This document shows, piece by piece, positions 1 through 14,209 of a stretch of DNA of 64,000 nucleotides. The stretch comes from an uncultured Christensenella sp. (GTDB lineage Bacteria; Bacillota; Clostridia; Christensenellales; UBA1242): positions 2,730 through 66,729 of the forward strand of contig CASDOR010000001.1 of the NCBI GenBank assembly GCA_949282135.1. The letters run 5' to 3'. Below the pieces are notes generated by a model. The model was not told the DNA's origin. It ran no database searches and worked only from the letters and a program-made list of their open reading frames with translations. Each line of letters opens with the position of its first letter. The stretch's first letter is position 1. Position numbers and translations under genes: made by a program.

Positions 1-155
1 AATGTTAAAGTGTAAAAAAGTTGAAAAACTTTTCCCGCTTGACCAAATGGTAGTCAAGCGACTATGCAATAATGTTGTTGAAAAAATAAAAAAAAAGTTT
101 TTCCGCAGGGACAAATGCTGTCCCCGCGACAATTGTAAAATCAATTTAAAAAGAG

Positions 156-329
156 GTGCGAAATGTAAAATTAAACTTAAAAATTCAAGAAAATCAAAAA
201 ACAAAAGAATTAGAAAAATATGAATATGACAACAATATGACTGATGAAGAAATAGAAGAACGCATACAAGAACTTGAAAGATTGCAAGAGCAAAAGAAAA
301 GGAAGAAAGAAAAAGATTTTGAGATGTAG
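156..329 (+). CDS. Small charged ORF (~57 aa from GTG156, or 30 aa from ATG237) ending ...KKKEKDFEM, probably mobile-element cargo or remnant
   Basis: Open frame from 150 to TAG at 327-329, not in the ORF track. K/E-rich; the C-terminus resembles the -DFEM/-DFER endings of Firmicutes mobile-element proteins. Start uncertain. Confidence 0.35.
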   Translation: MRNVKLNLKIQENQKTKELEKYEYDNNMTDEEIEERIQELERLQEQKKRKKEKDFEM

Positions 330-379
330 ATGAATTTAAAATAATAGTATGATATAATACTGTATAAATAGAGGTTTAT

Positions 380-973
380 ATGATTAAATTATTTTTAAAG
401 AAAAATTGGCCTAGTTTAATTATAACGTTGGTATGGGCAATATTAACAGGGCTTTCAAAATTAGAGATTGATGTTTCATGGATAAAAGATATAAATACTT
501 GGGCTAATGCATTTATTTTAGAACTATATTTATTTCAATTAATGTCTGCAATTACTATTAAGATTAAAAATCAATATTGGCAATCATTGATAAGTTTAAT
601 GGTTTCTTTGTTTGTCGGAGAAACAATTAGATATAATTTTAATCTCGTTGATTTTTCTTTTATGAATTTGTTAGGAATATTCTTATTTTCATTGTTTACA
701 ATCTTGATGACATACCAGTCATTTTCTTTTGGAGTAAATAAAGGAATTAAAGAAATTGAACAGCAAAAAAATGTTTTACATTCAAAAATAAGAGAAATGT
801 CAAATGAAGATACCAAAAGTTTTTTAAAAGAAATAAATAGAAGTATCAATTTTATGAAAAAACATCCATTTGCTGCAAGTATTATCAAAGATAGCAATTT
901 GCGGGAGTTGGAGTCCTTTAGAAGTGAGGTAAAAGAAATAAAAAATACAACAAATAAAATTGACAGCAAATGA
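380..973 (+). CDS. Hypothetical membrane protein (about 4 TM helices plus charged C-terminal helical tail)
   Basis: 197-aa ORF with TGATATAAT (-10 at 353-358) and AGAGG RBS upstream; hydrophobic N-terminal 115 aa; stop codon lies within the TGACAGCAAA repeats. Confidence 0.8.
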   Translation: MIKLFLKKNWPSLIITLVWAILTGLSKLEIDVSWIKDINTWANAFILELYLFQLMSAITIKIKNQYWQSLISLMVSLFVGETIRYNFNLVDFSFMNLLGIFLFSLFTILMTYQSFSFGVNKGIKEIEQQKNVLHSKIREMSNEDTKSFLKEINRSINFMKKHPFAASIIKDSNLRELESFRSEVKEIKNTTNKIDSK

Positions 974-1094
974 CAGCAAATTTATCAGTTTTGGGTAATT
1001 TTAGAACGATTTAGACCGATAGTTGAAATTTTGACTATCGGTCTATTTTTTTTAAAAATTTTTGACAGCAAATATTGATAAATTTGACAGCAAA
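961..1094 (+). repeat. Four direct copies of TGACAGCAAA (961, 971, 1063, 1085), candidate integrase arm-type sites
   Basis: Exact 10-mers seen in two pairs about 90-225 bp from the tRNA 3' end. The arm-site role is inferred from tyrosine-integrase att architecture. Confidence 0.65.
1013..1053 (+). terminator. Intrinsic terminator after ORF 380-973
   Basis: 11-bp stem AGACCGATAGT/ACTATCGGTCT followed by a T-run. Confidence 0.75.
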
Positions 1095-1135
1095 TATTTT
1101 TTATTAGGAAAATTAATAAATGTTTTTAAAAATTA

Positions 1136-1180
1136 AAAAATCGCTAAAAGCCTTTATTTATAAGGGATTTAGCGATTTTT
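1136..1180. terminator. Hairpin immediately 3' of tRNA-Thr (terminator or att-adjacent stem)
   Basis: 13-bp perfect stem AAAAATCGCTAAA/TTTAGCGATTTTT. Confidence 0.65.
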
Positions 1181-1186
1181 AATGAG

Positions 1187-1262
1187 TGGAGCTTATGATG
1201 GGACTCGAACCCATGACCTCAGCCTTACCAAGGCTGTGCGCTACCTGCTGCGCCACATAAGC
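1187..1262 (-). tRNA. tRNA-Thr(GGT)
   Basis: Reverse complement GCTTATGTGGCGCAGCAGGTAGCGCACAGCCTTGGTAAGGCTGAGGTCATGGGTTCGAGTCCCATCATAAGCTCCA: 76 nt, fully paired acceptor and anticodon stems, GGT anticodon, TTCGA T-loop, encoded CCA. Confidence 0.97.
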
Positions 1263-1323
1263 ATATTGAATTTGAGAGTGTTTTTTGTTGTTTTTCGAGT
1301 GGTAAAATTTGTCATTTTTTATT

Positions 1324-1360
1324 TTACCAAGGCGGTGCTCTACCGCTGGGCCACACCAGC
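1324..1360 (-). pseudogene. 5' half of a second, different tRNA-Thr(GGT), cut at the anticodon loop
   Basis: Reverse complement GCTGGTGTGGCCCAGCGGTAGAGCACCGCCTTGGTAA = acceptor 5' strand, D-arm, anticodon 5' strand and loop; no 3' half follows. Confidence 0.85.
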
Positions 1361-1422
1361 ACGGACTAAATAAAGGGTGATTTTTTTTAGTGACTTTAAG
1401 GTGTAAAATTTGTTATTTTTTT

Positions 1423-1459
1423 TTACTGAGGGGGAGCACTGCTTTTGAGATACATCAAT
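1423..1459 (-). pseudogene. Heavily decayed second tRNA 5'-half copy
   Basis: Aligns without gaps to 1324-1360 at 22/37 identity, mismatches mostly G>A or C>T; preceded on + by the same GTAAAA...TTTTAC motif about 100 bp from the first. Confidence 0.55.
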
Positions 1460-2342
1460 GTGGATTTAGTGAGAGGGGGTATTGGTTAGTTTTCGTCATT
1501 CTTGAATTATTTATTTTGCATATTATTTTTTGTGCAGTGTTTAAGTAGAATCTCGTCTGCTTTTTTAACATATTATGATTAAGATTGTTTTTTATAATTT
1601 CATATCAACTTTTTACTGAAATTATTTTCAAAATGCATGTCATTTAAAAATTTTATTAAATAAAAATTTGTGAAATATTATTTTTAATTTAGTTTTATGA
1701 CATCAATTTGTAGAGATTCTATTTAATAATATATACAAGCATAGCACATAATGACCACCAATATTACAAGTATGATTTTAAATTAAAACTAGGTACTTTT
1801 AAGAAGATAGACACTAAGAATCTTTATTCATAATTTGCAAATTATACAAGCCTAAAATTCAGAAAAACTGCTTAAATTTTATACGATAAACTAATATAAT
1901 AATATTTAAACATCATTAGATTTTTACGACTCTACGAGGCTTTCCACTAATTGTAACTAATTTTAACAAATTATTTATTTGCAAGAAATATAGTTTAAAA
2001 TAAATATATTTGGTGCATGGTTAAAGTCTAGTACATTAAAATGTTGATGTCAAGCAATTTTAGTAAATTAAGCTAGGAATGGATTTTTCGTAATCAAAAA
2101 TTTCTTTGGAAAACAAATTTTATAACTTTTTGAGGAATTGAAAATTTGCTACTCATTGGCAAAAATAATAGGTTTATTAAACAATTGTTGTCTTTGTTTT
2201 TATTATATTTAGGTGATTTTTTTGTAAAGCAAAAGTTAATTTTATCTTTATAATATCGAGAAATTGTATTTAAAATAAAAAATGCATTATTTTATTGCCA
2301 TAAAAGATAAAATTTTGTAAAATAATACTAATAGGGTGAGGA

Positions 2343-3923: not shown

Positions 3924-5618
3924 ATGAGCTTTTTTAATGTAAATTTTACAAAGAGGGAAACGACAAAAATGAGAATTGGATTTAACGAGAGAAAACTAAA
4001 TATTCTTTTTGGTATACTTATTCTTTTTTGTTGTATTGGTTTTTCTTGCTTTTATTTTAACCTGGATGTTCATGCAAAGGTGAATCTCGTTAGTAATGCT
4101 AGTACTTCTGAAATAAATACAAGTAACTATTATTTATTTGACCTTGATAGTAACATGTTTAATGCCCTATGTGCGATTGAACACGAAATTAAGGGCGATG
4201 GAGATACAAAAGACTTAGCTTTTAATAGTGATTTTTTTAGTGTAGGATATAAAGAAGCTGTGCCAACAAGTAGTGATGGGGTCGCAATTAAAAATGATTT
4301 AACACAAGGTGTTCTTTATCTTGTGGCTGGTCCAAATGCAAAATATGAATGCTTAAAGGGGCTTGGTGGTTTAGAAAATATTGAGGGACTTAACAATATT
4401 GATTTTAGTGGTGTTAATGAACTTGTTCTTACTGGAAATTCTATTAACCAAATTAGTGAACTTGATTTAGAAAGTTTTACAACTCTTACAAGATTATCTG
4501 CTGAAAACAATGAACTAACAAACATAGACTTAAGTCCTGAGTTACAATCAAGACTCGTAGAATTAAATTTAAGTAATAACAAGTTAACCAGTTTAGATAT
4601 AAGTAGGGTAGGCAATCAAGCGAACGTAAATTTAAGTAGTAATAAATTAACAAGTCTAGGAAACTTGTCTGGGAATTTAGGAACTTTAAATATTGGTTTT
4701 AATAACATAACAAACGTTAATGAGTTAAATATTATTAGAAATACTGCAGGTTGTAGTCCTTTAATTTTTGTGCAGGGCTTAGGTGATGTTAGCATCGCAG
4801 GAGATAAAATTTTAGTAGATAGTACTCACTATAATTTACAAGCAACACTTGAATATTCCTATGAAAGCATGTTTGCAGGAGAGGAAATAGTGCTTAACAC
4901 TCAATCTAATTTTTGCGAGATTTATATGCCTGCAGGATACGTGACTCTTTCATTTGAATATGCTGAGAATATGCCAATTAACGTCTTAAGTTTATTAGTT
5001 GATAGAGAGTATGCGCTTAAATTAGATATGCCTCAGGTTACGGCAATGTCAAATGGAAACACAATTACAAATTTTGAAAGTACTCAAAGTATGTATTTTA
5101 CTTTTTCAATTAATTTGAATGAAAATATAGCAAATTATCAAGATATTTTGTCAAATGCTACACTTTATTCTGGAATAGGCGAAAATATTGGCGAGGGAGG
5201 ACAAATAGCAATAGAAGAAAATGGGGATTATACGTTGCGTTCATATGTTGTTTTTGATAATATACAAAGTGATGTCATATCTATAAGCGTTTCTAAGAAT
5301 GACTATTCAGGAGTTACATGGGCTTTAATTATTATAGTGGGAATTGTTGTTATAATTGCAAGTCTTTGGTTTATAATTAGATGGTTTAGAAATGGGGCGG
5401 TTGTAGCGCCACTTTCTGATAGAGAAATTGCGAGACTTAATAGAAAAAAAGAGATTAGAGAAAGTGGTAAATATTATTCTTATTCCTTTGAAAAGGAAAA
5501 GGATTTAGAAGGACACGATGACGATTTAGTAGACTTAAGTGACGATGGCACAAATGATTTGGAAAATGGTGACTTAGATCTAAATAATGGAGAGGGAGAA
5601 GATGGCGAAAAGTATTAA
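3924..5618 (+). CDS. Internalin-type leucine-rich-repeat membrane-anchored surface protein
   Basis: LxxLxLxxNxL repeats (LVLTGNSI, LSAENNEL, LNLSNNKL, VNLSSNKL, LNIGFNNI); N-terminal hydrophobic segment; TM near the C-terminus; acidic tail. Confidence 0.85.
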   Translation: MSFFNVNFTKRETTKMRIGFNERKLNILFGILILFCCIGFSCFYFNLDVHAKVNLVSNASTSEINTSNYYLFDLDSNMFNALCAIEHEIKGDGDTKDLAFNSDFFSVGYKEAVPTSSDGVAIKNDLTQGVLYLVAGPNAKYECLKGLGGLENIEGLNNIDFSGVNELVLTGNSINQISELDLESFTTLTRLSAENNELTNIDLSPELQSRLVELNLSNNKLTSLDISRVGNQANVNLSSNKLTSLGNLSGNLGTLNIGFNNITNVNELNIIRNTAGCSPLIFVQGLGDVSIAGDKILVDSTHYNLQATLEYSYESMFAGEEIVLNTQSNFCEIYMPAGYVTLSFEYAENMPINVLSLLVDREYALKLDMPQVTAMSNGNTITNFESTQSMYFTFSINLNENIANYQDILSNATLYSGIGENIGEGGQIAIEENGDYTLRSYVVFDNIQSDVISISVSKNDYSGVTWALIIIVGIVVIIASLWFIIRWFRNGAVVAPLSDREIARLNRKKEIRESGKYYSYSFEKEKDLEGHDDDLVDLSDDGTNDLENGDLDLNNGEGEDGEKY

Positions 5619-6408
5619 TGGAAGAGTGGTTGTTGTAACTGGGGCATCAAGTGGTATTGGTAGGGAAATCGCAAAATATTTTGCAAATAATGGAGATAAG
5701 GTTTTTGGACTAGCAAGAAGTAGTTTTGAGGAAGAAAACATAAAGTCAATTAGTTGTGATGTAACGATAAAAGAAAGTGTGAGGCTTGCGATAAAAGAAG
5801 TAATTACAAAAGAGGGGCATATTGATATACTTATAAATAATGCTGGGTGTGGAGTGTCAGGAAGTGTAGAGAATAGCGATATAGATGACATAAAAAATAT
5901 GTTTAATGTTAATTTTTTTGGGGCAGTAAGTGTTACACAAGAAGTTTTACCTTTTATGCGTGAACATGGTGGCGGAAAAATAATAAATACTAGTTCTGTC
6001 GCAAGTGTTATACCTATACCTTTTCAAAGCTTTTATAGTGCGACTAAGTCCAGTCTTGATATATACGCAAAAGCACTTAGGCTTGAAGTTAAACCATTTA
6101 ATATTGAAATATGTAACGTACTTGTTGGAGATACTAAATCTAATTTTACCTCTTCTAGAAAAAAATCTCAGAGAGATGAGGGAAGTGTGTATGAAGAGAC
6201 TGTAAAAAGGTCAGTTGAAAAAATGGAAAATGACGAGAAAAACGGAAAAGATCCAGTAAGTGTTGCAAAAACAATGTTTAAACTTTCGCTTAAAAAGAAA
6301 CTCCCACCAACAAAGACAGTTGGACTAAAGTACAAACTTATTGTTTTCTTAAACAAAATTTTACCTCAAAAATTCATGTTGTTTGTTGTATCAAAGCTGT
6401 ATTCCTAG
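5602..6408 (+). CDS. Short-chain dehydrogenase/reductase (SDR)
   Basis: TGASSGIG, NNAG and YxxxK (YSATK) motifs; start taken at ATG5602 after GGGAG. Confidence 0.93.
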   Translation: MAKSINGRVVVVTGASSGIGREIAKYFANNGDKVFGLARSSFEEENIKSISCDVTIKESVRLAIKEVITKEGHIDILINNAGCGVSGSVENSDIDDIKNMFNVNFFGAVSVTQEVLPFMREHGGGKIINTSSVASVIPIPFQSFYSATKSSLDIYAKALRLEVKPFNIEICNVLVGDTKSNFTSSRKKSQRDEGSVYEETVKRSVEKMENDEKNGKDPVSVAKTMFKLSLKKKLPPTKTVGLKYKLIVFLNKILPQKFMLFVVSKLYS

Positions 6409-9606: not shown

Positions 9607-10423
9607 TATTGTTGAATTAAATGATGTTGAGATAAAAGAAAGTTTGGAACAATTATATAACTCTTTCGACAATGGATATGAATTTGAGCAATTTTTAAAA
9701 GTATTTTTAGAAAAAATTGGACTTGAAGAAGTAGTGGTGACTCAAAGATCTAGAGATGGCGGGATAGATTTAACTTGTGTTAAATCAGGCATCAATGGTT
9801 TATCAACTCTAGATGAAGTTAAGTATTATGTTCAAGCAAAACGTTTTAAGCCAAGTTCTACCGTTTCAATAAAAGATTTGAGAGAATTAAGAGGAGTTAT
9901 GCCTTTAAACTATAAAGGCATATTCATTACAACTGCTAAATTCCCTAGCGGAGCAAAAGAATTTGCGGAAGAAGACAACACAAGACAAATAATTTTAATT
10001 GATGGTAAAACTCTAATACAACAATGCATAACAATAGGTTTGGGATTTAATTTTAAACCAGTATTTGATGCAAACACCCTAGAAATTAAAACGTTAAACA
10101 ATCAGAATAATAACAATCCCAATGATAATTTTGTTTTTACTGTTAGTAAAAAAATAAGTTTAAATGATATACGGGCAAGAATTTTAAGAATTCCTTCTGA
10201 AATAGAGAAGGAACTTCCTCATGAAAAGTCTAATATAAATGTATTAATCAATGGCAAAGAATATAAATTAAACATCAATGCAGATAGAACTTATTTGGGC
10301 GGAGTGACCAAAATTTACAAAGATGAAGGTTTAATATTAGAAAATAATTTATATATATCCAAACTTGCAACATGGTATTATTCAAAAGAAAAAATAGTAA
10401 TAGAAATCAAAGGAGAAAATTAA
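9596..10423 (+). CDS. Mrr-like PD-(D/E)XK endonuclease with an extra C-terminal domain
   Basis: FEQF...RDGGIDL...YVQAKRF...GIFITTAKF...LIDG is the Mrr catalytic domain; ~110-aa unassigned C-terminal domain. Confidence 0.85.
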   Translation: MMSNIVELNDVEIKESLEQLYNSFDNGYEFEQFLKVFLEKIGLEEVVVTQRSRDGGIDLTCVKSGINGLSTLDEVKYYVQAKRFKPSSTVSIKDLRELRGVMPLNYKGIFITTAKFPSGAKEFAEEDNTRQIILIDGKTLIQQCITIGLGFNFKPVFDANTLEIKTLNNQNNNNPNDNFVFTVSKKISLNDIRARILRIPSEIEKELPHEKSNINVLINGKEYKLNINADRTYLGGVTKIYKDEGLILENNLYISKLATWYYSKEKIVIEIKGEN

Positions 10424-10425
10424 TT

Positions 10426-10965
10426 ATGATAAAAAATGGTAAAGGTGGTGGAAATACTAAAACGGGTTTGGTTTTTGAAGGAAGAGTTGATCTGTCCACC
10501 TTTTTAAGTCATCAACCGCATTATTCTATAAAGGGTCATGATGTTTATTTTGATAATGAGAAAGTCGCACGAGTATTTAAAAAGAATGATTTTTATTCAA
10601 TATTTCTTAAAGAATTGAATATTGATTGGACAAAATGTATATCTAAAAAATTATTGCCAGATGATAGCATTTTTGTATTACTAAACAATACTCTTTTTAT
10701 AATTGAATGTAAACATCAGCAAGTAGCAGGTTCGGTGGATGAAAAATTACAAACTTGTGATTTCAAGAAAAAACAATATAAGAAACTTATGGCACCAGCT
10801 AATATTGATGTCCAATATATCTATCTTCTTGATGAGTGGTTTAAAAACCCTAGATATAAGGATGTGCTAGATTACATTCAGTCTGTAGGATGCGACTATT
10901 ATTTTGAGTATATTCCATTAACAAAGTTAGGTTTGCCAGTTCCACCAGAAAATATTGAGGACTAA
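10426..10965 (+). CDS. PD-(D/E)XK nuclease, putative Type II restriction endonuclease (179 aa)
   Basis: LLPDD...IIECKHQ catalytic pattern; start at ATG10426 after AAGGAG; lies between two MTases. Confidence 0.75.
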   Translation: MIKNGKGGGNTKTGLVFEGRVDLSTFLSHQPHYSIKGHDVYFDNEKVARVFKKNDFYSIFLKELNIDWTKCISKKLLPDDSIFVLLNNTLFIIECKHQQVAGSVDEKLQTCDFKKKQYKKLMAPANIDVQYIYLLDEWFKNPRYKDVLDYIQSVGCDYYFEYIPLTKLGLPVPPENIED

Positions 10966-10967
10966 TA

Positions 10968-11687
10968 ATGGAAGAAAAATTTGAATTAGAAACCAATACG
11001 GTTTGGTCATTCCCAAATCGTGGTAAATGGGCAACGCATGATGCGAAATATCGTGGAAATTTTTCGCCTTATGTTGCCAAGAATATTATTTTACGTTATT
11101 CAAAACCAAATGACATTGTTCTGGATCAATTTGTTGGCGGCGGAACAACACTTATTGAATGTAAACTAAATAATCGTAATGCTATTGGCTTTGATATAAA
11201 TATAAAAGCTGTTGAGATAACCAAAGATAAATTAAATTTTGAAACTAAATATCAAAAAGATATAAAAGTAAATATTGGTGACGCTTGTAATTTGCAAGAT
11301 ATTGAAGATAATAGCATTGATTTAATTTGCACCCACCCACCTTATGCTGATATTATTAAATACAGTGAAGATATTGAAGGTGATTTATCTCATTTAAAAT
11401 ATAAAGATTTTCTTGTTGCAATTAAAAATGTAGCAAGTGAGTGTTTTAGAGTTTTAAAGAAAGATAAATTTTGCGCAATAGTTATGGGTGATACTCGCAA
11501 GAACGGAATGGTTCAACCATTAGGTTTTGAAGTTATGCAAAGGTTTATCAATGCTGGTTTCAAATTAAAAGAAATTATAATCAAAGAACAACACAACTGC
11601 AAGGCAACAGGTTTTTGGAAAACAAATAGTCAAAAATACAACTTTTTGCTTTTAGCACATGAGTATATTTTTATTTTTAAAAAGTAA
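10968..11687 (+). CDS. Second amino-methyltransferase (N4-C/N6-A DNA methylase family)
   Basis: DQFVGGGTT SAM-binding motif followed by THPPY catalytic motif. Confidence 0.88.
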   Translation: MEEKFELETNTVWSFPNRGKWATHDAKYRGNFSPYVAKNIILRYSKPNDIVLDQFVGGGTTLIECKLNNRNAIGFDINIKAVEITKDKLNFETKYQKDIKVNIGDACNLQDIEDNSIDLICTHPPYADIIKYSEDIEGDLSHLKYKDFLVAIKNVASECFRVLKKDKFCAIVMGDTRKNGMVQPLGFEVMQRFINAGFKLKEIIIKEQHNCKATGFWKTNSQKYNFLLLAHEYIFIFKK

Positions 11688-11698
11688 AAGGGGTAAAA

Positions 11699-13357
11699 AT
11701 GGATTTTGATTCAACGAATAGAAGTGTAAAAGAATTATTATCTGATAAAATTTTTAAAATTCCTATAAACCAAAGGAAATATGTTTGGTCAGAGCGAAAT
11801 TGGAAAGATCTTTTAACTGATGTATTTTTAGTTTGTGATGAAAATACAAAAGGACATTTTATAGGCAGTATAGTTTTAGAAGATAATGGGAAAAATGATG
11901 CGATTAAATTTTATAAAATAATTGATGGTCAGCAAAGGATTATATCTATTGTTATTTTATTATCGTCTTTATATCAAATTTATTTAGAAAAGGGAATGCT
12001 TAAGGAATCTGAAGCAATTAAAAGATACTGCTTTGCATTCAATTCAAATAATGATATGTTTTTTGTTTTGGAAAATGCTGAACCTGGATTAAAAGAGATG
12101 GTTATAGATGTTTTTTCTAAAACAGAAGCTTTTGACTTTATTTGGATTGAAAAACCTTTAAAAAATAAAAATAATGAAAATATTTTTAATGCATATAACT
12201 ATTTTTACGAACAATTAAAAAATAAAATATCTTTGCAAACAGATAAAAGAAAATATCTTTTAAAAATTTTTCAGACGATTATTGGTATTGATTATATTGA
12301 TGTTGTAACATCAGCAAGCGAAGATTCTTTTACCATATTTGAAATTTTAAATGCTAGAGGACAAAAACTTGAGGATTATGAGTTATTAAAAAATTTAGTA
12401 CTTAAATATTCGAAAAATAAAGAAGATACAAAAAATAAATGGCAAATTATATTGCAAAATGTAACAACAAAAGGTAAATGTTATATTAAAAATTTTATTA
12501 AACATTACAGCATGCACAAATATCTCAGTAAAAGTTATTCTTCTCCATATTTGGTTATTAGAGAAAATGTTGATAAAGCGAATATCGAAGATTTAATAAA
12601 TGATTTATTTGTAAAATCAAATATCTATAGAGAATTTTTGGCACCAGATGAAATAAATGAATCCGAATTACGCCGAAATATTTATGTGTTTTTTAATGCG
12701 AACAAACAAACACAATATCGTCCATTAATAATGAGTCTAACCAATCAGTTTAATAAAGGTCAAATGACTAAGGAACAATTTGACAATGCGTTGATATTCT
12801 TGAAAAAATATTTTATTTGCTTTACATTAATAAGTATGGAAAAGTCAAACAAAATAGAAAATGTTATTTATAAATATTCTAGCCTTTTAGAAAACAATTA
12901 CACTGATGAAAATTTGCGTGATTTAATTGATTCATTAAAAAATAAGTTTCCTTCAAAGATTTTGTTTTCTAAAAGGTTAGAAACTGTTGCATGGTCCCAC
13001 AAGCCAGATAGCCCCTACAATGAAGAAAAAATGAAGGAACGAATTAAAATAATATTTAATTTAATTGAAGAATTCAACACAGGCAGATCATGTATAGTCG
13101 ACTTTACAATTGAGCATATATTACCAGACGATGGTGGCGATACTAATTCAAAAATTGGCAATTTATTACCATTGGAAAGACATTTAAATGAGAGATGTAA
13201 AAATAAAACATTTTTAGAGAAGTTAAAGATCTACAACGAAAGTCAAATACAAAGTGTGAGAAAGTTTTGCACTATATATAAAAACCAACAATTTAGAATT
13301 GAATCAAGACATAACTATGTAGTAGACTTACTTTATGAAAAGATACTTACCTATTAA
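11699..13357 (+). CDS. DUF262-DUF1524 (fused GmrSD-like) endonuclease
   Basis: IPINQRKYVWS, IIDGQQRI and FEILNARG (DUF262); TIEHILP...IGNLLPL..HLN (DUF1524 HNH-like). Confidence 0.9.
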   Translation: MDFDSTNRSVKELLSDKIFKIPINQRKYVWSERNWKDLLTDVFLVCDENTKGHFIGSIVLEDNGKNDAIKFYKIIDGQQRIISIVILLSSLYQIYLEKGMLKESEAIKRYCFAFNSNNDMFFVLENAEPGLKEMVIDVFSKTEAFDFIWIEKPLKNKNNENIFNAYNYFYEQLKNKISLQTDKRKYLLKIFQTIIGIDYIDVVTSASEDSFTIFEILNARGQKLEDYELLKNLVLKYSKNKEDTKNKWQIILQNVTTKGKCYIKNFIKHYSMHKYLSKSYSSPYLVIRENVDKANIEDLINDLFVKSNIYREFLAPDEINESELRRNIYVFFNANKQTQYRPLIMSLTNQFNKGQMTKEQFDNALIFLKKYFICFTLISMEKSNKIENVIYKYSSLLENNYTDENLRDLIDSLKNKFPSKILFSKRLETVAWSHKPDSPYNEEKMKERIKIIFNLIEEFNTGRSCIVDFTIEHILPDDGGDTNSKIGNLLPLERHLNERCKNKTFLEKLKIYNESQIQSVRKFCTIYKNQQFRIESRHNYVVDLLYEKILTY

Positions 13358-13381
13358 ACTTTTTAAATTTTGGCAGTTAAA

Positions 13382-13511
13382 CGTGCGCTTGTCTTGATAC
13401 AAGTCGGTGTCGCTTCGCTCCACCGAAAGACAAGCACACGCTAATAATCCATTTGTGTTACAAAAAGAGCGGCTGCTGGCAGAGCGTAACGCAATCCGCT
13501 CTTTTGTTTTT
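13382..13511. other. Tandem GC-rich stem-loops after gmrSD-like gene (terminators or small-RNA candidate)
   Basis: Stem 13383-13395/13427-13439 (12/13) enclosing CGGTG/CACCG; second stem AAAAGAGCGG/CCGCTCTTTT (13463-13505) with T-runs on both strands. Confidence 0.6.
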
Positions 13512-13524
13512 TCTCTCTTTTTCT

Positions 13525-13552
13525 AGTATAAACGAATATTCTTTGTTGTCAA
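13525..13552 (-). promoter_or_regulatory. Near-consensus sigma-A promoter pointing leftwards into the hairpins
   Basis: Minus strand TTGACA-16 nt-TATACT. Confidence 0.55.
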
Positions 13553-13657
13553 GGTTAAAGTGAATGTCTAAAAATTTGCAAATTGAAAATTATAATAACA
13601 ACCTATGACAACGGCAGAAGTATTCGTTTTTTTGCAATTAAGAGAGAATTAAGTGCA

Positions 13658-13697
13658 AAAAGAAAACATAGGTGGTTTTTTACCTATGTTTCTCTTT
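13658..13697 (-). terminator. Hairpin just inside the right inverted repeat (probable terminator for yqeY-like gene)
   Basis: 10-bp perfect core AAACATAGGT/ACCTATGTTT with flanking A/T runs. Confidence 0.65.
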
Positions 13698-13786
13698 AAT
13701 ATTCTGCTAGTTTCAAAATTGCTTGACTAATTGCTAGCTCTTTTTAAATTAACTTTTTTAAACTGCATAAGACTTTATAATAAAAA

Positions 13787-14209
13787 TTACATTTCCTTAA
13801 GAGTCTTACTTACAAGTGCCATATCTACTTTTCCTAAGTAATTTTGTTTAAAATGTTTCATGACAGATGGGATTGACTTGTCATCAAGAGAAAGAATAAT
13901 ATTTTTTATTTCTGCTTCCTCTAACATCTTAGGTAGATAAATAGAAATAATTTCCTTTTGCTGAAGAATATTTTTAGATTGCTCTAGATTACCTGCCTTT
14001 TCATAACTTTCCGACTCGTCGGTCAGCTCTTTAATTGTTTTTTGAATAATTCTAATCATGTCCTCATCTGTCAATTCTTCGTTTTTTTCACGTTTTTTAA
14101 CTGTTTCAAGCATTGCTTTTGTCATAACGACTGAATATACCGCTCTTGCGTTTTGGTCTTTGTTTTTTAGTGCGACCATATTAGCACGTTTAATTTCATC
14201 TAAAATCAT
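13787..14209 (-). CDS. GatB/YqeY domain protein
   Basis: Helical 140 aa; ...MVALKNKD...LTDEDMIRIIQKTIKE...YLPKML...SVMK..K.GKVD pattern of YqeY. Confidence 0.85.
   Translation of the reverse strand: MILDEIKRANMVALKNKDQNARAVYSVVMTKAMLETVKKREKNEELTDEDMIRIIQKTIKELTDESESYEKAGNLEQSKNILQQKEIISIYLPKMLEEAEIKNIILSLDDKSIPSVMKHFKQNYLGKVDMALVSKTLKEM

Follow-up and report, generated by a model that had tools for sequence, protein, structure and literature searches.

What is the origin of the one clean and one decayed half of a tRNA-Thr gene that lie directly upstream of an intact tRNA-Thr(GGT) gene near the beginning of the window, the whole 64,000-nucleotide stretch of DNA analysed here (positions 2730-66729 of contig CASDOR010000001.1, hereafter C1)? 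The window belongs to assembly G000, a metagenome-assembled genome (MAG) of 1.25 Mb with 32% G+C in 29 contigs; throughout, G-numbers denote genomes, L-numbers integrase loci and C-numbers contigs of the assembly compared. Comparison with the rest of the assembly and with related genomes made it very probable that this region is the attL end of a 12.2-kb integrative island that splits tRNA-Thr(GGU) and supplies its own copy, and that the decayed half is the scar of an earlier round. The island family is common in small-genome Christensenellales.

Stranded 5′ halves upstream of the live tRNA-Thr(GGT) gene

The features at this end of the island are listed below; both halves, here called H1 and H2, and the live tRNA read on the minus strand.

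1136-1180, minus strand: terminator-like hairpin just 3′ of the island tRNA (inverted repeat I7, 19-nt arms, 89% complementary)
1187-1262, minus strand: live island-borne tRNA-Thr(GGT) (ARAGORN; Rfam tRNA, 71.7 bits)
1263-1323, minus strand: spacer 1, 61 nt, the core-proximal part of the element's P′ arm, with the short inverted repeat GGTAAA...TTTACC
1324-1330, minus strand: attL crossover core TTGGTAA in the anticodon loop (8 bp when the preceding C is counted)
1324-1360, minus strand: H1, stranded 5′ half of a formerly active tRNA-Thr(GGT) allele, which folds with a 3′ half on contig C21
1361-1422, minus strand: spacer 2, homologous to 1263-1323 (repeat D7), probably left by an older element of the same kind
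1423-1459, minus strand: H2, decayed 5′ half of a still older tRNA-Thr gene, 22/37 identical to H1

Along the minus strand the order is thus H2 (1459-1423), a 62-nt spacer, H1 (1360-1324), a 61-nt spacer, tRNA-Thr(GGT) (1262-1187), the terminator hairpin and a set of TTGACAGCAAAT repeats; hairpins equivalent to that at 1136-1180 also follow the tRNA in relatives. The live allele (GCTTATG...CATAAGC, CCA encoded) is borne by the island and is the sole tRNA-Thr(GGT) gene that ARAGORN detects in the assembly. An identical copy is present in other genomes, and in G015 the 5′ half of this very allele occurs as the stranded outermost half.

H1, with the sequence GCTGGTGTGGCCCAGCGGTAGAGCACCGCCTTGGTAA (GCTGGTGTGGCCCAGCGGTAGAGCACCGCC-TTGGTAA when written to the core), ends exactly after the anticodon loop, as the preliminary description of this DNA had stated. 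That description had also held that H1 cannot pair with the 3′ half of the live tRNA, which was overstated: the acceptor stem would contain one mismatch and one G.U pair and the anticodon stem one mismatch. The stronger argument against the two belonging together is that a complete tRNA lies only 61 nt away and that the true partner of H1 is found elsewhere.

The identity of 22/37 first reported between H2 and H1 was reproduced at an offset of 99, other offsets between 95 and 105 giving at most 15, and none of 123,926 control 37-mers from the window reached 22 identities (mean 8.3, sd 2.5). When the units of half plus spacer were aligned with each other, the local score was 40, against 16.9 ± 2.9 for shuffled sequences, and 0/2000 shuffles reached 40. 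The tRNA part of H2 taken on its own is not significant against shuffles (311/2000 reach its score), but the homology of unit 1 to unit 2 continues through the spacer, which indicates that H2 is real. The two units repeat with a period of about 100 bp (offsets 99 and 101) and share the 22-nt block D7 at 91% identity, and each carries the previously noticed inverted repeat GTAAAA...TTTTAC (1302-1327 and 1403-1426), whose arms are just 6 nt long and one of whose arms overlaps the crossover core. The faint third unit suspected near 1495 did not hold up, since in the unit alignment test its scores fell within those of shuffles. Spacers homologous to spacer 1 were found in G048, G018 and G013. In an Rfam scan of the island ends the tRNA was the sole match, and a promoter scan of the spacers was uninformative in such AT-rich DNA.

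The matching 3′ half at the far boundary of the island

A genome-wide search revealed a stranded 3′ half at C21:8209-8253 (plus strand), where non-tRNA sequence ending in attcaaaac is followed by TTGGTAAGGCAGAGGTCACGGGTCCGAGTCCCGTCGCCAGCCCCA. Such a half had been predicted for the far island boundary, and the check that could have refuted the preliminary interpretation thus turned out in favour of it. It begins exactly at TTGGTAA, as foreseen, and its acceptor strand CGCCAGC is complementary to GCTGGTG of H1; the predicted anticodon-stem letters GGCGG proved to be GGCAG, and the predicted acceptor strand CACCAGC differs from the actual one. When H1 and C21:8216-8253 were joined in silico, ARAGORN called a tRNA-Thr(GGT) with 7/7 acceptor-stem pairs, one G.U included, and the joined gene was 69/75 identical to an intact live allele in relatives. 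The T-loop TCCGA of the 3′ half is also present in live alleles of the genus and is therefore not damage.

The two contigs could be connected because the end of reverse-complemented C21 overlaps the start of C1 by 44 exact bp. A 773-amino-acid open reading frame (ORF) spans the join, and G098 holds a contiguous 773-amino-acid homologue that is 78% identical across the C21/C1 junction. Bounded by the stranded 3′ half (C21:8209-8253) and H1, the island measures 12,223 bp from core to core. Its attL reads ...cgccTTGGTAAaataa and its attR ...aaaacTTGGTAAggcag, and the only identity between them is cTTGGTAA (8 bp). Beyond C21:8253, only ~190 nt of hairpins precede a chromosomal HD-domain gene, which was present in only 4 other genomes among 40 searched; in G019, the only genome checked for this, the HD-domain gene and tRNA-Thr lie on different contigs. 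The sequence GTCCtaGCCAGCa at C21:8379-8391 is at most suggestive of a 3′ partner of H2.

As to the T-loop itself, many tRNA-Thr(GGT) alleles of the genus (G019, G014, G030, G005, G002 and the half at C21:8209-8253) read TCCGATT and so have C in place of the U (pseudouridine 55) that almost all tRNAs carry at position 55. The live tRNA-Thr(GGT) of the window has the canonical T-loop TTCGAGT.

An integrase stump and repeat-bearing arms

The window holds the following parts of the island inward of the tRNA.

1-1330, no strand assigned: right-hand 1.33 kb of the 12,223-bp island, the remainder lying at C1:1-2729 and C21:8208-1
26-85, plus strand: possible, weakly matching fragment of the deleted integrase (SAM-like domain, residues ~118-137; tblastn with KLFPLDQMVVKRLCNNVVEK)
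170-337, plus strand: 3′ stump of a tyrosine integrase gene, C-terminal tail ...EEIEERIQELERLQEQKKRKKEKDFEM*, catalytic body deleted
380-973, plus strand: ORF for a 197-amino-acid predicted membrane protein in the cargo slot between integrase and P′ arm
960-1095, plus strand: P′ arm with putative arm-type integrase sites, four direct TTGACAGCAAAT-type repeats at 960, 971, 1062 and 1084

By blastn, the segment 170-337 matched over 30 related integrase genes at their 3′ ends (70-82% nucleotide identity, E down to 1e-20), and it encodes the characteristic C-terminal tail of the family, ...KKEKDFEM*, aligning to the C-terminus of the G013 integrase. The region directly upstream of it (C1:2335-2910) matches the module that lies upstream of integrases at other loci, and PF00589 has no match anywhere in the island. 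The presence of the stump, the matching upstream module and the missing PF00589 together indicate that the body of the integrase gene has been deleted. The short translation KLFPLDQMVVKRLCNNVVEK (26-85), which gave tblastn matches to three integrases at E 0.1-0.7, is collinear with the tail remnant and may be a further trace of it.

Of the P′ arm repeats, two lie on each side of a hairpin at 1012-1045. All six occurrences of TTGACA[AG]C in the 24-kb joined region fall within ~370 bp of the two island ends, the density in the genome being 0.08 per kb. Dozens of relatives share the P′ arm module (70-79% conserved), and the C21 end of the island (the P arm) aligns with the attR arm of the element in G019, including TTTTGACAAC and TTGTCAACTGTTGTCA. 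Clusters of short repeats thus occupy both sides of the attP core, as in lambda-type systems, suggesting that the TTGACA[AG]C repeats are putative arm-type binding sites of the integrase. The slot of the 197-amino-acid protein, for which no Pfam or PADLOC match was found, is occupied in G019 by a DRT-type reverse transcriptase.

Relatives with intact integrases

The arrangement of a 5′ half, a ~60-nt spacer and a full tRNA-Thr(GGT) was found in 11 of the 27 congeneric species genomes searched and in some other genera; the named MAGs with related elements are Christensenellales, e.g. Candidatus Caccovivens and "uncultured Christensenella sp.". In these relatives a tyrosine integrase of 450-500 amino acids is encoded just downstream of the full tRNA and convergent with it, and carries Phage_integrase (PF00589), Phage_int_SAM_3 and Phage_int_M domains and an N-terminal GEGSI.QRKDGRW motif. 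Scanning the species genomes with an integrase profile returned 203 relatives, and 80 loci were kept, nearly all of them in Christensenellales or Clostridia MAGs from animal and human guts. Their flanks contain 62 tRNAs (45 Thr(GGT), 12 Ile(GAT)), every one convergent with the integrase (62/62), and 41/62 are accompanied by one to three stranded 5′ halves, each ending exactly at the anticodon loop. The first half mostly lies 61-64 nt from the tRNA, usually ~62 nt, and the next ones follow at steps of ~101 nt. Alleles and spacer types often differ inside one stack (three alleles and three spacer types at L071), so that simple duplication cannot account for the stacks. Integrase-linked stacks of this kind were seen at dozens of loci.

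A complete element of 14.4 kb was found on one contig in G019. Its order is a 5′ half GCTACTG..., a 62-nt spacer, a full tRNA GCTGGTG..., a DRT-type reverse transcriptase gene, a gene for a 495-amino-acid integrase, further cargo, arm repeats and, 14.4 kb away, the matching 3′ half ...CAGTAGA, and its junctions have only TTGGTAA in common. The TTGACAAC repeats are likewise putative arm-type sites. The cargo is devoted to anti-phage defence and does not consist of phage genes; it encodes PDC-S53, a radical-SAM protein, a MazG-like protein, the reverse transcriptase (DRT, UG30-type) and an SLFN-type helicase that has a GIY-YIG domain. In both G064 and G066, the first 3′ half past the element body is the pairing partner of the innermost 5′ half. 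Stranded 5′ halves clearly outnumber stranded 3′ halves across the genomes searched, and G061 and G014 contain perfectly duplicated units of half plus spacer without 3′ partners.

At locus L061 (CAAGAO010000029.1), the tRNA at 5601-5675 is a hybrid tRNA-Thr that combines a 5′ half GCTGGTG/CCACC with a 3′ half GGCAG/CAGTAGC. The 5′ half is of the G019-type allele and is preceded by a G019-type spacer, a half stranded upstream is a perfect pairing partner for the 3′ half, and next comes a P′ arm that belongs to another element. ARAGORN calls this gene a tRNA in spite of three stem mismatches. It appears to have arisen when an element recombined the core in its own tRNA with that of its attR.

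Two further searches concerned the agent. Serine recombinases were considered and rejected, as matches to PF07508 sit elsewhere in the genomes and none at these loci. A search of IMG/VR yielded no more than two distant relatives of the integrase, at 40% identity, and no tRNA lies near either of them.

Proposed mechanism of integration and tRNA replacement

These observations suggest the following course of events. A lambda-type tyrosine integrase would carry out recombination between the 7-8-bp (c)TTGGTAA of the element and the chromosomal tRNA-Thr(GGU) gene at its anticodon loop, assisted by arm-type sites on both sides and with strand exchange inside the 7-nt anticodon loop; the attP of the circular form would read ...ttcaaaacTTGGTAAaataaaaaatgac.... 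Because the element has no tRNA homology beyond the loop, the target tRNA would be split and not rebuilt, leaving H1 at one end and the 3′ half (C21:8209-8253) at the other, and the complete tRNA-Thr(GGU) of the element, 61-62 nt inside attL, would take over the function. Since the element's tRNA has the same anticodon loop, it would become the next attachment site (attB), and repeated insertions would stack units of 5′ half plus spacer upstream of the live tRNA. H2 and its spacer would be a scar left by an earlier such round, which would make the array an ordered one with the oldest scar farthest from the live tRNA.

Much of this had been anticipated in the preliminary description. That an element cuts the tRNA in the anticodon loop and carries a replacement ~60 nt away, which then serves as the next target, is borne out by the G019 element, by the integrase-linked stacks and by the stranded allele in G015. 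As for the idea of a serial array, the order with the oldest unit farthest away stands; nested element bodies are not required, some units resemble footprints, and a second 3′ half, one for H2, was not found.

The reading draws on the anatomy of the locus, the fit of the two halves, the 8-bp identity of the junctions, the integrase stump, the repeats at the ends, the recurrence with intact integrases and the way in which the halves are ordered in G064 and G066. It is presumably the integrase that catalyses the event, and the host may depend on the island's tRNA, a requirement that the single detected tRNA-Thr(GGT) makes plausible. For the loss of the older element, two routes would fit, namely deletion of a nested body or aberrant core-by-core excision.

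Several points weigh against the proposed course of events. The island copy is now immobile, its integrase being deleted, and its mobility is historical. The joined H1 and C21 3′ half contain a single mismatch in each of two stems, the D stem and the anticodon stem, which are expected for decay without proving it. No second 3′ half and no body of an older element were found downstream of C21:8253. An empty site at this locus could not be recognised through flanking synteny, which is too poorly conserved among species representatives, and the unsplit state of tRNA-Thr(GGT) was seen only in other species, e.g. G020.

A broader and more tentative proposal, in which we place limited confidence, is that the tRNA-Thr(GGU) loci of small-genome Christensenellales, and likewise those of Ile(GAU) and Arg(ACG), may act as a self-renewing docking site, where each non-phage island destroys the current tRNA and installs a foreign allele as the next target. 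The ladder of 5′ halves might then be a chronological log of visits, including 100-bp footprints of aberrant excision; the ~62-nt spacer would possibly let the host tRNA promoter drive the incoming tRNA by reading through the dead halves (promoter capture), and decay of the halves would lock the host to the island tRNA even after loss of the integrase. Were this so, many tRNA-Thr(GGU) genes of the lineage would be element-borne and exchanged horizontally.

Alternative explanations

The alternative that survives best concerns H2 only, and we regard it as a real contender although we lean away from it. The unit from H2 through the spacer to H1 could be a footprint instead of what a nested element left behind on its later deletion: the body of an earlier element would have been removed by recombination between its own-tRNA core and its attR core, and only the spacer and the 5′ half of the element's tRNA (H1) would have remained, now joined to the resident 3′ half. 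In that case H2 would have its original partner in the 3′ half on C21, and a second 3′ half would never have existed there. The hybrid tRNA at L061 looks exactly like such a product, and the units without 3′ partners in G061 and G014, the excess of stranded 5′ over 3′ halves and the lack of a second 3′ half or element remnant past C21:8253 point in the same direction. Yet 3′ halves may also be hidden by incompleteness of MAGs and by decay, plain deletion of the older body predicts the same picture, and H2 is too decayed for a pairing test with the C21 3′ half.

It is unlikely that H2 arose by local tandem duplication of a ~100-bp unit, through slippage or unequal homologous exchange, followed by decay and without a visit of a second element. 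The ~100-bp period (offsets 99 and 101) would suit such an origin, as would the identical tandem units that exist in relatives. However, H2 differs from H1 at 15/37 positions and H1 from a live allele at only 2/37, indicating that H2 became neutral much earlier than H1; moreover, a duplicate of the H1 unit needs a further upstream unit, of which none is detectable, and the stacks of relatives often hold different alleles and unrelated spacer types.

We give very little credence to an ordinary tRNA-restoring island of the Islander type with tandem accretion, in which host and island would each have contributed a part of the live tRNA and H1 would be a piece displaced from it. The site is indeed a tRNA gene, relatives use a tyrosine integrase, and the crossover falls in the anticodon loop, as it does in many classical islands; but here the whole of the live tRNA is island DNA, 61 nt away from the junction, the common identity of attL and attR is only 8 bp, and the displaced pieces are mutually fitting 5′ and 3′ halves. 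An assembly or binning artefact, with chimeric contigs meeting at a repeated tRNA, is hardly credible at all, for although the MAG consists of 29 contigs and the island crosses a contig break, a single contig holds H2, H1 and the tRNA, the ORF at the junction is unbroken in G098, and the same architecture recurs in dozens of independent MAGs, also on single long contigs.

Relation to known tRNA-targeting elements

The closest counterpart of the proposed splitting and replacement is tRNA-dependent lysogeny, which was demonstrated by experiment in actinobacteriophages (Fionnbharth, Cluster L, Gaia and others; Guerrero-Bustamante & Hatfull, mBio 2024, PMC10865867). In that system a tyrosine integrase acts on an attB in a tRNA gene with an 8-17-bp core, no tRNA is reconstructed, and lysogeny requires a cognate tRNA encoded by the phage. 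The island agrees with it in that its attB overlaps a tRNA gene, H1 and the C21 3′ half being a tRNA-Thr(GGT) split in the anticodon loop; in its short core (8 bp against 8-17 bp in the phages) with no tRNA rebuilt; and in encoding a cognate tRNA of the same isotype and anticodon. Of the tyrosine integrase the island retains the 3′ stump only, and relatives have intact integrases at the same position. The island differs in that no phage structural or lysis genes were found in it or in the G019 element, this island carrying surface lipoproteins, an AAA/VWA module and a dead reverse transcriptase and the G019 element defence genes; in the near-fixed distance of ~62 nt between tRNA and core, by which repeated hits leave a ~100-nt ladder of 5′ halves; and in its host, which belongs to Christensenellales and not to Actinobacteria, with the island copy fixed and its integrase deleted.

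The authors of that study expected the mechanism outside Actinobacteria and cited prophage Lj965 of Lactobacillus johnsonii as a likely case (PMC10865867). Lj965 resembles the island as a Firmicutes element whose integration does not rebuild the tRNA and which carries a cognate tRNA, whereas it is a prophage for which stacking and fixed spacing are unreported; this likeness is one of description only. Classical tRNA/tmRNA islands and their tandem accretion (Islander database, PMC4383910), including the accretion of cis-mobilizable elements (CIME) and integrative and conjugative elements (ICE), share the tyrosine integrase, the anticodon-loop sublocation and the repeated use of one tRNA site, which leads to arrays of elements and tRNA fragments. 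They carry the 3′ (rarely the 5′) part of the tRNA and regenerate a hybrid gene, so that their scars are direct repeats of one part; here, in contrast, a whole foreign allele is installed, nothing is regenerated, and the scars are complementary halves. The anatomy thus excludes a classical tRNA-restoring island (PMC4383910).

The mechanism is accordingly that of tRNA-dependent lysogeny (PMC10865867) and not new in principle; new are the host group, the non-phage type of element and the array of scars. In the literature searched, we found no description of the fixed ~62-nt spacing, of the 5′-half ladder or of fixation after loss of the integrase. A strategy of destroying a tRNA gene and bringing one's own, proven only in 2024 for actinobacteriophages, appears here to be common in non-phage cargo and defence islands of gut Christensenellales. 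On this view tRNA genes move horizontally as whole alleles, and not the flanking islands alone. A presumably essential gene can also come to lie on a dead element, the only detected tRNA-Thr(GGU) gene of the assembly sitting on an immobile island. Each event can leave a ~100-nt scar, and a stack is then an ordered integration record that can be mined across MAGs. For annotation, island finders relying on long tRNA-derived direct repeats will miss such islands, and tRNA finders may annotate halves or hybrids as genes.

Cargo, neighbouring genes and other loci

The cargo of the island comprises two lipoproteins (one with Flg_new repeats), an AAA_5/DUF6273 protein, a 127-amino-acid ORF, a DUF2201 metallopeptidase/VWA protein, the 197-amino-acid membrane protein and a reverse-transcriptase pseudogene. 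The latter (RVT_1; C21:2325-2900, locus L001) is N-terminally truncated and has an in-frame stop, and its best PADLOC models are generic reverse transcriptase, Cas1-fused reverse transcriptase and DRT UG17. The module of AAA_5/DUF6273 protein, 127-amino-acid ORF and DUF2201/VWA protein (positions 10084-14191 of the joined region J, that is, C21:1917-1 plus C1:45-2235) is 75-80% nucleotide-identical to G098:C5:74428-78316, which belongs to another genus and adjoins a tRNA-Lys(CTT). A similar cargo module beside different tRNAs indicates that cargo modules move between islands at different tRNAs. The G098 locus was set aside as a source of information on the tRNA-Thr site, its tRNA-Lys(CTT) being without a stranded half.

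Across C1:2100-2730 and window positions 1-150, three ~125-bp repeat units, each ending in GGTTATATAAGTAGAGGGG, are followed by three hairpins CGC...CAAATGGT...GCG. This region has no Rfam match, is conserved upstream of the integrase genes at L079, L108, L029, L056 and L094, and may be a regulatory region of the element or a non-coding RNA. In the AT-rich P arm, a G+C-richer segment at C21:7778-7948 (gggaagccgaacttgcttgcaagggtgaggctg...), which likewise has no Rfam match, is 77% conserved in L078 and is possibly a structured RNA. The region C21:11400-15200 (locus L001), some 3 kb past the far end of the island, holds a CRISPR array, whose repeats translate as FNSLTPCGVR; the genes beside it were read by eye, and we take them to be type I-C cas7 and cas8c.

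Other tRNA genes of the same assembly, outside the window, have comparable surroundings. At C13:8600-10000 (locus L029), three stacked Ile 5′ halves, two of them broken after ...CCCTG and one after ...CTGATAA, lie upstream of a tRNA-Ile(GAT), after which come TTGACATCAA repeats, two on each side of a hairpin, and a gene for a 450-amino-acid tyrosine integrase, the same architecture as at tRNA-Thr. At C9:49650-50550 (locus L028), a stranded Arg 5′ half lies 153 nt upstream of a tRNA-Arg(ACG), and the convergent integrase of 476 amino acids has an internal HTH_26 domain in place of the SAM-like domain. At C6:42544-42970 (locus L030), a tRNA-Leu(TAA) is followed by three AAAATTGGGGTC repeats and an 83-amino-acid integrase fragment, and in G098 similar repeats, GGGGTCAAAAAT, follow the tRNA-Lys(CTT); the repeats at these two tRNAs are probably remnants of another tRNA-linked island family.

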